From the NCBI GenBank assembly GCA_964187785.1, contig OZ076409.1:992001-1056000 (forward strand): DNA of 64,000 bases, read 5' to 3'. Shown here piece by piece: positions 19,401 to 21,889 of the stretch (positions within the stretch are counted from its first letter, which is position 1; each line of letters opens with the position of its first letter). Under the pieces are notes generated by a model, which saw nothing but the letters and a program-made list of their open reading frames with translations, searched no databases and was not told the origin of the DNA. Source of the stretch: Amphiscolops sp. MND2022. Taxonomy: Eukaryota. The position numbers were made by a program, and so were the translations under genes.

Positions 19401-21889
19401 TGTTGTTCAGTCCATTTGAAAGGTGTGGTGTCTTTTATCAACTCATAGAATGGTTGACTATCGACGTGTAGATTCTTGATATAGCAGCTATAAAAGCCTA
19501 AACATCCGAGTACTTTCATTACGTCTCGTTTGCATTCCGGTGACTTCAAATTCTTCAGGTCTTGTACTCTTTTAGCTACTGGTTGAATTCCGTCCTGAGA
19601 TATAACATGTCCCAGGAATTTTACTTTTCTCAAGAAGAAGTGTGTCTTGTCAGGTGCGGCTTTTAGTCCGCCTTTTCGTAGGAGTTGGTGGTATTCGTGT
19701 ATGATGGTGAACATCTCGCCTTTGGTTTGCGATTGGAGGAGACTATCATCAAGATAGGTGATTGCTTGTTTCTTCTTTACTAGGGGTTCGAAGTTAATTG
19801 CCATCATTCGGCTAAACCATTGAGGGAGTCCACAAAGACCATAGAATCCAACTTGATAGGTGTATTGTTTTCCACCTACAATGAAACTAGTTAGTTTCTG
19901 AGTTTCTTCACTAAGAGGTACTTGGTGATATGCACACGAGAGATCACTTGCTGTGAAGTATTTGCCGTTGATTCTTGTCATAATCATTTGGACCGGTTCG
20001 AGTGGCCAAGAGTAGTTTGTTAAGTCAGTGATAGAATTCAAATATCTTGCATCAATGACAAGTTTAACATAGTCAGCTTTAGGTAAGAGAATGATTGGGT
20101 TTACAAAGAGCGAGCCGAGTTCGTCATCGTCTCCCATTTCTCTAATGATGCCAGTTTCTTGCAATTGCCCGAGAAGTTTTTCGAGTTTATCTTTCAGATG
20201 AAGTGGAACTTTGCTAGGACGTTGTTTGCGGAGTTCTGAGTTTGGTTTTAGAGTGACATGGAACTTCTGTTTGGTTTGGCCAATATCGAATTTGTGTTGT
20301 GAGTATACATCTCTGGAGTCAATGATCATATCTATCAGCATAACAAGTTCTTCATCTTCCAAATCGGTGTATTGAAAATCGAATTGTTTGATGAAGTCTT
20401 TTATTTCTTGAGGTTGATACTGTAGATAGTAGTCGATGAGATCATTGTTCAACTCTTTAGGTCTTAGTATTGGAAATTGTTCCTTACACGGAGGCTGACA
20501 TGATTTGGAATCTTTGGTGAAGTCTGTTTCTAGCTCGTTCTTTTCATTCGTCCATTCGTTCGTGTAGTTATCAATTTCATCTTCGATAGAGTTTGAAGGT
20601 TTGTTAGCCATTTTACAGTCTAATTCATTTCTGGAGATGATCTGAATGAGAATTCCAGAGTCAGTGAATGTGTCTTTCAATATCTTTAGTACTTCATTCC
20701 AAGAGAGTTTGTCGAGTCCACAACCAATTTTTGGCATTGTTATTATGTGAACATTGTTGAGCAGAGCGTGGCCTTTCATGTTTTCAAGCGATATCCGAAG
20801 ATTCTCAAGGGTAGGTTTTTCAAAGAACTTGTTTTTTGTGACAAGGTTGTATATGAATCTATTTGCATCATTGTCCCAGAAGGGGATGACTGATCCGACA
20901 AAAGGTTTTGATTTGTAGCAATACTCTTGTAGTCCATTGATGTGGTTAGTGATAGTTTCAGCAAAGCCTTTACTCATCTTTGCATCTGCCGATATGCAAT
21001 GAGCAATGGCTGTCTGATTTTCAAAGATTGTATCATCGTTCCCATTAATGATACGTATGCCATCTCTGAAGTCTGGTTCATGAGGTAGTGTTGAGTGTAG
21101 TAGGAAGCATTCGTTATACTGGTCATTCTCAGAGAGTATACAGTCAACCATTTTAACACAGTCTTTTATTTGGTATTTCGGTCGTTCGAAATCAAGTATA
21201 TCTAGCGATGAATATCCCAAAATTCCTTTGTCGAGAGTTATTTGGTGGTTCTTGTTGTTCTCCATCAGGATTGGTAGGTATTGTTCTGATTGCGTACAAA
21301 GTACATTCACAAAGTCCAGTCCGGAGTTGGCCACTTTTTGATGAGGGATGAAAGTAGTCCCTGATACAAAATTTGTTTGTTCATCTTCTGGTTGGTATTT
21401 GTAGACACGAGATGTCTTAGCATCAATGTGTATCTGGTGCGGTATCCGTATTGCCTTGATTAGTGACAGGTAGGGATAAGGTTTGGTGGCACAAAGGCTG
21501 CCGTAGCAAATTGTGTTAGGAGTATCTTTGAGTTCTAAAGCCGGAATATCAAAGTGGAGTTTGGAGATGTATTTTCTACAGAATTCAATGCCCAATAAGT
21601 TTGCTGTTTTGGTTTCTGTTATCCAGAGTTGGAGTTGAAAGCAGTGTTGTCCATCAGAGTCAAAACTAAAGTTTAGAGTTGTATGACCCAACATCGGTAT
21701 TTCTTCTCCAGTGTACGTTCTTGTCTTTTGTTTACTTCTCACTACTGTAATTGGTTGCAGAAACTGAGAAATTTCACAAAAAGTGCGATAGTTGATGATA
21801 GAGCAAGCTGCTCCGGTATCTATCATGAATTCGATTTCAAGTCCACTATCTTTTTTAGAGTCTCCGGTGGGGAAATAGAAAACATTCAT
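16430..21889 (-). CDS. pol: Pol: protease - macrodomain - RT - RNase H - integrase (1819 aa; likely made as Gag-Pol)
   Basis: DTGA protease; AHCISAD...NLVTK...KPT...PKIGCGLD macrodomain (~20640-21060); RT DLSCAYHQ and YLDD; RNase H DSS/EL/DHKP; integrase HHCC, IDHKG, HDNG, GKVE, GPF. Confidence 0.97.
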   Translation of the reverse strand: MNVFYFPTGDSKKDSGLEIEFMIDTGAACSIINYRTFCEISQFLQPITVVRSKQKTRTYTGEEIPMLGHTTLNFSFDSDGQHCFQLQLWITETKTANLLGIEFCRKYISKLHFDIPALELKDTPNTICYGSLCATKPYPYLSLIKAIRIPHQIHIDAKTSRVYKYQPEDEQTNFVSGTTFIPHQKVANSGLDFVNVLCTQSEQYLPILMENNKNHQITLDKGILGYSSLDILDFERPKYQIKDCVKMVDCILSENDQYNECFLLHSTLPHEPDFRDGIRIINGNDDTIFENQTAIAHCISADAKMSKGFAETITNHINGLQEYCYKSKPFVGSVIPFWDNDANRFIYNLVTKNKFFEKPTLENLRISLENMKGHALLNNVHIITMPKIGCGLDKLSWNEVLKILKDTFTDSGILIQIISRNELDCKMANKPSNSIEDEIDNYTNEWTNEKNELETDFTKDSKSCQPPCKEQFPILRPKELNNDLIDYYLQYQPQEIKDFIKQFDFQYTDLEDEELVMLIDMIIDSRDVYSQHKFDIGQTKQKFHVTLKPNSELRKQRPSKVPLHLKDKLEKLLGQLQETGIIREMGDDDELGSLFVNPIILLPKADYVKLVIDARYLNSITDLTNYSWPLEPVQMIMTRINGKYFTASDLSCAYHQVPLSEETQKLTSFIVGGKQYTYQVGFYGLCGLPQWFSRMMAINFEPLVKKKQAITYLDDSLLQSQTKGEMFTIIHEYHQLLRKGGLKAAPDKTHFFLRKVKFLGHVISQDGIQPVAKRVQDLKNLKSPECKRDVMKVLGCLGFYSCYIKNLHVDSQPFYELIKDTTPFKWTEQHETLFNQIKERISEDTILAVPSTEYPFHIHVDSSNVGTGCILVQQFPEGKRIVSFNSRVFDKAEQKMSTLHRELCGIVSALQTYEHYIIGSPFPIYLYCDHKPILYLWGRKGQLSHRFFKYQVIITKFHNLKIIWTPGSNLAFPDILSRNVTLSDINKLQLQHKEIPKEISFYDEKGDQMHYTIKHEDSQDISCNDFFPIICQHGNDRQILHLKNDGDEQYVEDYIEDNEVLATMQDMTDCFKLGKTINQYKRLCSDVCPYFTNYTIEEETYSEIEEQQDDGYNSDNEVAELNFDQKDSDFLHDFSLANESIRRNKSQKPILKSNIDSELHPEVDTKELIQKLSDFAKTADLDVTTLVEEQLNDPVLQKVRSWIKKSDKRPTKTHDINQSKALLSYFNRFEQLFIDEETNLLCYNETVQETNKTEMKICVPLSLFLPLFKLAHTHSHSGHPGIFKTFENVRQYFFWPGRYKWIVYLIEDCIECQTNKSKRHDLHEAPLEQWGELETTPFKTIHIDHKGPLRPSSNSNNHCLVVVDAFSRFIGVYPVKDTSAQATITALEKWITSYGIPQKIIHDNGTAFINSDFINWTKEFGITLAPRTTYSPWTNGKVEVQNQHLTRYWRNFTNESGNNWSKLAPKFAFAHNTSVNYTTGLTPYEIVFGTKPQVPMTLKLGLIRDKNKQCRSEYCEGLQPHTHSENQLPNKSLDRLLRPQLSDELIARENDFKRIYSSTYQRCRQITSKAHEYRNRFKLGRPINIGQKVFLENHTADLSRSQKLKQLRIGPFTVTKQITNTTYEIQEDANPDNIKVTHRNHLIEYFPKEERLPPLITNYAPPITKDSDFYKHLVQSQINDYNSNQQRCSLDVMPFIISPLQENSNIQEMSKNHAALSPNTDSGIQSPSTPTNDDHNYQNLTISPLPPLQTPILPITPMPIRVPTILRTTPQFHEAEQSTSSSPKKKNKVADLTSKVKAKYKRSHPDSSLRDLERKGYKE

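Follow-up and report, generated by a model that had tools for sequence, protein, structure and literature searches.

Human TARG1 (OARD1, C6orf130; PDB 4J5S, 4J5R, 2L8R) is a macrodomain hydrolase in which Lys84 forms a lysyl-ADP-ribose intermediate that is resolved by Asp125, and its members are described by the pattern TKx(30,35)Px[IL]GxGxD, which includes both residues (PMC6397177). It is reported to act at low nanomolar levels on RNA, from which it removes base-linked ADP-ribose and which Lys50, Arg86 and Arg126 help to dock (bioRxiv 10.64898/2026.03.31.715305), and to remove thymidine-linked ADP-ribose from DNA (PMC9967889). DarG is described as reversing DNA ADP-ribosylation, and DarT/DarG systems as acting in anti-phage defence (PMC9967889). 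Viral macrodomains are known to counter antiviral PARPs (PMC7729036, PMC8003356), and retroviruses and long interspersed nuclear elements (LINEs) are described as being restricted by ZAP/PARP13 (PMC4806868, PMC4441479). Here, we describe a TARG1-type macrodomain within the Pol polyprotein of element A, an intact env-bearing Ty3/gypsy long terminal repeat (LTR) element of 19.3 kb (6507-25758, minus strand). It lies in a stretch of 64,000 nucleotides from Amphiscolops sp. MND2022 (contig OZ076409.1, positions 992,001 to 1,056,000), which is referred to as the window and whose coordinates are used throughout.

The original prediction, which named no strand, had quoted TARG1-like motifs in frame in Pol. 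They are indeed in frame, on the minus strand and within one open frame of 1853 codons, and the domain extends over 20627..21061 (-), corresponding to residues 311-455 of Pol when numbering begins at the upstream stop. Its placement between protease and reverse transcriptase (RT) also holds, with the correction that a linker of about 170 residues (21077..21571 (-)) precedes it and about 100 residues separate it from the region scored as RT. The close resemblance to TARG1 was borne out by sequence search, fold and motif alike. A phmmer search of 177,635 distinct PDB sequences gave five matches at E<=0.01, all of them human TARG1/C6orf130 (best E 2e-24). The TARG1 pattern is present in the macrodomain and occurs nowhere else in a six-frame translation of the window. 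Both catalytic residues, which had been stated to be retained, were recovered by all three approaches, with the Lys84 equivalent at 20836-20834 (-) and the Asp125 equivalent at 20713-20711 (-) in a GxGxD loop (20725-20711). The Pfam check gave a Macro match with E 5e-4 and 20.4 bits, below the cut-off of 22 bits, and the match was absent when the whole Pol was scanned. Therefore, Pfam by itself would miss this macrodomain.

Folding of the single sequence reached a predicted local distance difference test score (pLDDT) of 39.8, and we used the model built from a 75-sequence alignment (pLDDT 93.8). The modelled domain has a macro fold, and its top eight Foldseek matches were TARG1 (E 3e-15, template modelling (TM) score 0.84, root mean square deviation 1.5 Å, 36% identity in the structural alignment). 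Besides the catalytic and ribose residues, it shares with the human enzyme basic residues at the positions of Arg86 and Arg126. It differs from it in being part of a retroelement polyprotein, in carrying Asn at the Asp20 position and in its near-neutral charge, as judged from sequence and model. The DarG macrodomain (PDB 5M3E, 5M3I), SCO6735 and yeast Poa1p are of the same ALC1-like fold class and come after TARG1, with DarG next and Poa1p at rank 24, but they are only about 18% identical, whereas the element A domain fits the TARG1 pattern. The macrodomains of coronaviruses and alphaviruses, which are polyprotein-encoded ADP-ribose erasers directed against host PARPs, serve as the functional model for the reading proposed below, but belong to another class (MacroD) with another catalytic mechanism (Venezuelan equine encephalitis virus at Foldseek rank 45, 14% identity). 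The closest viral structures are TARG1-like domains, largely from invertebrate RNA viruses, with 25-37% identity among the top ten: Kadipiro virus VP8, thrips flavi-, negev- and virga-like viruses, Ips virga-like virus 1 and a CRESS virus, none of which is a retroelement. By fold and motif, the element A domain belongs to the TARG1 type, with an altered adenine pocket.

Comparison with relatives shows that the Pol of one Ty3/gypsy subclade gained a TARG1-class macrodomain in a common ancestor; it was inserted in frame ahead of RT and is about 165 residues long. We propose that through -1 frameshifting the domain becomes part of Gag-Pol and thereby enters the particle together with RT and integrase. 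The gag open reading frame (ORF; 436 codons, 21937..23247 (-), PF03732 E 5e-5) overlaps the pol ORF (1853 codons without a stop, 16430..21991 (-)), and the overlap contains the heptamer TTTAAAC (21943..21949 (-)) immediately ahead of the gag stop. We take this heptamer to be of the typical -1 slippery type; it is the probable frameshift site yielding Gag-Pol, and the 80 nt on its 3' side fold weakly (-7.3 kcal/mol). Judged from this site, synthesis as Gag-Pol and co-packaging of the macrodomain are likely. Its Lys84 and Asp125 equivalents would remove ADP-ribose via a lysyl-ADP-ribose intermediate, as in TARG1. The likeliest job of such an enzyme would be to reverse ADP-ribosylation that the host places on genomic RNA, cDNA or proteins of the element, or on host factors, and that would stop translation, reverse transcription or integration if left in place. 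RNA and DNA are also what a retroelement has to bring through reverse transcription.

Equivalents of His32, Cys33, Ser35, Thr83, Lys84, Pro118, the GxG loop and Asp125 are all present in the element A domain, so that the alignment covers the complete set of distal-ribose residues (His32, Cys33, Ser35, Thr83). Based on these residues and the modelled fold, the macrodomain likely has hydrolase activity. For conservation counts, we used the best 120 of 703 shorter proteins from a similarity search with the domain. All 120 are collinear with Pol, and 116 of them plus P0004 align over at least 80% of their length (4 of the 121 proteins examined, including P0004, align over less). Among these matches, the catalytic Lys is found in 113/118 and the Asp in 105/112 of the homologues covering the respective site, and both are found in 100/112. 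At 19 site positions chosen by us, the 34 most distant homologues match in 621 of 646 residues; in the rest of the domain they match in 1734 of 4267. Picking homologues by domain similarity inflates conservation, a first point that weakens our proposal, and the test was therefore repeated on relatives selected by RT-RNase H. Five of the nine macrodomain-bearing relatives obtained in this way keep 8-9 of nine ligand-site residues, and four of these five match at just 52-62 of 136 other positions. Since the ligand site is kept while the rest of the domain has diverged by about 55-60%, the active site is likely under selection in these relatives.

The search with RT-RNase H gave 111 matches, several of which end before the macrodomain region. 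Nine of the 111 have the macrodomain, all with at least 68% identity in RT-RNase H, and the position survey that had been suggested placed it upstream of RT in all nine. Compared to the nearest complete sisters, the insertion amounts to 166-168 residues (P0282-P0284) or 152 residues (P0285, P0286). An interpretation of P0282 as a partial macrodomain deletion was rejected, because this protein is macro-less. A quick RT tree was calculated from 42 of 45 rows, the 45 being drawn from the 111 matches, six other rows and the Pol itself. In this tree, a single branch (Shimodaira-Hasegawa-like approximate likelihood ratio test support 96) unites the 13 rows that carry the domain here with one truncated row, which indicates a single gain in this subclade.

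The remaining four of the nine relatives keep just 2-6 of nine site residues in open Pol frames. These proteins represent clusters of 168 (P0274), 36 (P0280), 108 (P0281) and 131 (P0287) sequences and fall in three separate lineages, in which the catalytic Asp loop and the phosphate-binding GxG glycines are lost while the domain is still full-length. P0274 is 87% identical to element A in RT and 41% in the domain, compared to 86% and 69% for P0022. At 75-81% RT identity, the domain is 42-49% identical and the upstream linker 49-57%. DNA of relatives for estimating the ratio of nonsynonymous to synonymous substitutions was sought by pattern matching, and none of four matches on viral contigs and none of 134 on metagenome contigs was confirmed. 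The site thus appears to be selected in some lineages and released in others, which points to an accessory, non-essential function: the domain is kept under selection in several lineages, missing from sister clades and degenerate in three lineages.

Several further observations weigh against a TARG1-like eraser that protects the element, in addition to the degenerate sites and the macro-less sister clades. The adenine-binding residues Asp20, Leu21 and Phe22 are not conserved: element A reads Gly-Asn-Asp-Asp-Thr-Ile-Phe, in a register set from the preceding Gly and the predicted secondary structure at a site outside the published family pattern. Among the homologues, the Asp20 position is Asn in 80 of 105, Thr in 23 and Asp in none. 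Loop 1 is MSKGF compared to MGAGI in TARG1; Ile44 is replaced by Phe and Lys50 by Asn. The three RNA-docking positions (50, 86 and 126) give a mixed picture, with Asn, Lys and Lys, i.e., two of three are basic at a net charge near zero. Homologues have Arg at position 50 in 52 of 118 cases, and Lys or Arg at positions 86 and 126 in 103 of 116 and 73 of 111 cases, respectively. Eight clade members range from -2 to +2 in net charge, whereas the median for 140 other TARG1-like domains is +5, and this near neutrality weakens the idea of a nucleic-acid substrate. Moreover, PARP activity is described as potentially proviral (PMC4806868), and PARP2 is reported in a review to help LINE-1 integration. 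The env-like and TRAF-C-like genes that element A also carries were counted in favour of our proposal. Taken together, an accessory de-ADP-ribosylase made within Gag-Pol, probably for counter-defence, is a reading for which we see the chances as evenly divided. The same balance applies to its central part, a role against host ADP-ribosylation, which is made plausible by the parallel with viral macrodomains and by the repeated occurrence of the domain type in unrelated parasites.

The proviral effects of PARPs keep an alternative alive in which the domain is part of repair housekeeping and clears ADP-ribose deposited by PARP1/2 during DNA repair from cDNA ends, integrase or gap-repair proteins and thereby allows integration to be completed, without any host restriction dedicated to the element. 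The reported action of PARP2 at LINE-1 integration sites, the fusion of TARG1-type domains to DNA ligase 3 in several homologues and the presence of macrodomain and integrase in one polyprotein are in agreement with this idea. However, sister clades transpose without a macrodomain, and the same domain type is found in RNA viruses, which have no integration step, so that we regard it as unlikely. The degenerate sites in open Pols of three lineages would be expected if a captured fold were merely tolerated between cleavage sites because it folds cleanly, and were now decaying. Such a spacer would also account for a domain identity that does not exceed that of the upstream linker, and captured enzymatic ORFs of rotifer elements are described as showing no significant departure from neutrality (PMC5408684). 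But site residues are near-invariant in four RT-selected relatives in which the other positions have diverged by about 55-60%, and the intact lineages differ from the degenerate ones, which exemplify relaxed selection. This makes decay of an idle passenger quite improbable.

The altered lineages also bear on the idea that the domain reads rather than erases, either by anchoring the integration complex or the particle at chromatin or granules that bear ADP-ribose, or by soaking up ADP-ribose via its lysine. The Lys84 equivalent is kept in all nine RT-selected relatives, even in those without the Asp loop, and the altered domains have retained their length. Nevertheless, the altered lineages lack the GxG glycines needed for binding, and element A itself has both catalytic residues; a reader or trap is thus a distinctly remote prospect. 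Finally, a Pfam Macro score below the cut-off is what might be expected of an artefact or a one-off chimera between a host TARG1 cDNA and a dead element. This is refuted by the collinear homologues, and it is hard to reconcile with the open 1853-codon frame, the nearly identical LTRs and the target-site duplication.

Our preferred reading, an accessory eraser within Gag-Pol, draws on the occurrence of the same domain type elsewhere, beginning with a second case in the window. Element B is a damaged LTR element (31955-53245 (+); LTRs 31955-32523 and 52677-53245) with a 7.4-kb internal tandem duplication. It is unrelated to element A (25% RT identity), and encodes a TARG1-type macrodomain downstream of integrase at 39620..39988 (+), which is 41% identical to the element A domain, and a tandem copy at 47037-47404. 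Both copies are damaged; the catalytic Lys is found in both and the Asp in one. TARG1-type domains also follow integrase in the Pols P0006 and P0273, RNase H in P0008 (named as Neodiprion virginianus by its source), P0169 and P0173, and an integrase zinc finger in P0189. Across unrelated retroelement lineages, the domain is thus located before RT, after RNase H or after integrase. In a Pfam scan of 65 representatives of at least 200 amino acids, retroelement families were found in three, and other fusion partners were parts of DNA ligase 3, NADAR and a picorna-like polyprotein. The DNA ligase 3 fusions, one of them named as Lepeophtheirus salmonis, include P0005, P0007 and P0142. A profile scan of viral contigs gave 317 stretches, 312 of which encode relatives; an RT match was absent at all 80 viral-contig loci kept. 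Two short stand-alone proteins (P0060, P0062) contain an A-clade macrodomain (about 63% identical) and end right after it; in these cases, the module has possibly left Pol. The N-terminal part of P0062 gave a weak PC4-like lead (score 0.86). P0242 and P0244 have the macrodomain in possibly mobile contexts, and the N-terminus of P0242 looks gag-like by eye.

The A clade is coherent in macrodomain trees (support 99 in FastTree, with the long-branched P0287 left out), and the other retroelement domains are scattered. Independent captures from hosts were not established by this pattern, since an approximately unbiased (AU) test on a quick tree (14 rows versus 25) did not reject one origin (p 0.124), and repeated capture and exchange between elements are thus indistinguishable. 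A broader generalization is that animal LTR retroelements repeatedly carry and exchange TARG1-class erasers, the reason being that their RNA or cDNA is ADP-ribosylated by hosts in an unrecognised form of restriction, a eukaryotic echo of DarT/DarG. Gain, retention and threefold decay in a single clade would then be the trace of an arms race. We put this forward only as a tentative and rather doubtful extension.

Capture of a macrodomain by an env-bearing LTR retroelement has a precedent in fish epsilon-like endogenous retroviruses, where, by the description in a review, the macro domain is an additional ORF (PMC4977317, citing Basta et al. 2009), in contrast to the in-frame Pol domain of element A. 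The rotifer LTR elements Vesta and Juno likewise have enzyme modules (DEDDy, GDSL) that are common to unrelated retroelements and of unproven function, but these are described as separate ORF3s (PMC5408684). The words 'macro' and 'ADP' do not occur in the main text of that study; 'macro' is missing from the main text of a survey of env-bearing gypsy elements (PMC13524379), and the main texts of PMC8195603 and PMC2774666 hold no relevant macrodomain passage. Our full-text literature search found no report of a TARG1-type domain in a Ty3/gypsy Pol, with subscription journals, supplements, Repbase and GyDB outside its scope, so that an earlier annotation is possible. While macrodomains of fish retroviruses are already reported, the TARG1 type in a gypsy Pol appears to be new.

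Work on the control of LTR retrotransposons has so far paid attention to small RNAs, chromatin and deaminases. If active, the element A domain would be direct genetic evidence of ADP-ribosylation acting on the LTR-retrotransposon life cycle, and would hint that hosts use ADP-ribose tags against mobile elements. It would add a TARG1-class, possibly nucleic-acid-directed, eraser to the macrodomains of parasites, whose studied examples are of the MacroD class. The clade offers a natural series, from sisters that lack the domain through lineages whose site is intact to the three whose site is degenerate, and the question can thus be tested on isolated domains.

Element A shows all features of Ty3/gypsy (Metaviridae-like) elements, i.e., LTRs, a target-site duplication, gag and a pol with Pfam domains in the order protease, RT, RNase H and integrase; named retroelements share about 26-27% RT-RNase H identity with it. 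Its 5' LTR (23574..25758 (-)) and 3' LTR (6507..8691 (-)) are 2185 nt long, the 5' LTR starting with TG and ending with CA. They are flanked by the duplication ACTT, and a primer-binding-site-like stretch starting with TGG lies next to the 5' LTR. The LTRs differ at just two of 2185 nt, indicating a recent insertion. Within pol, the protease is encoded at 21844-21581 (-), RT contains YLDD at 19756 (-), RNase H is found at 19414-19019 (-) and integrase, with a C-terminal SH3-like region, at 18115-17594 (-). The linker between protease and macrodomain is also present in macro-less relatives (29-33% identity). It had no PDB match at E<=10 and all Atlas scores were below 0.9; a dUTPase-like fold is conjectural.

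Downstream of pol, three small ORFs (13454..14686 (-)) gave no Pfam match; two of them (14686-14348 and 14318-13992) are paralogues with 53% identity. A 712-codon env-like ORF (10223..12361 (-)) encodes a Monjiviricetes-type fusion glycoprotein (PF24664 E 4e-39) without an RxxR site. The env-like ORF of element B (50094-51968 (+)) has RxxR followed by a hydrophobic stretch and no Pfam match. An accessory ORF of element A (8750..9904 (-)) encodes a coiled coil and a TRAF-C/MATH domain (best match TRAF5, E 1e-14), and Pfam reported no RING or zinc-finger family in it. Its product is a candidate decoy of host immune signalling. No tRNA genes were found in the window. Ahead of env, four 74-nt repeats (12698-13373), each with a TTATTTATA core, may serve as internal promoters or in splicing. 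An 86-nt tandem array is found within both LTRs of element A (7539-8182 and 24606-25249). A 2.6-kb tandem duplication with a 22-nt array and a satellite of about 172 nt are located at 641-5898 and 56316-58607.

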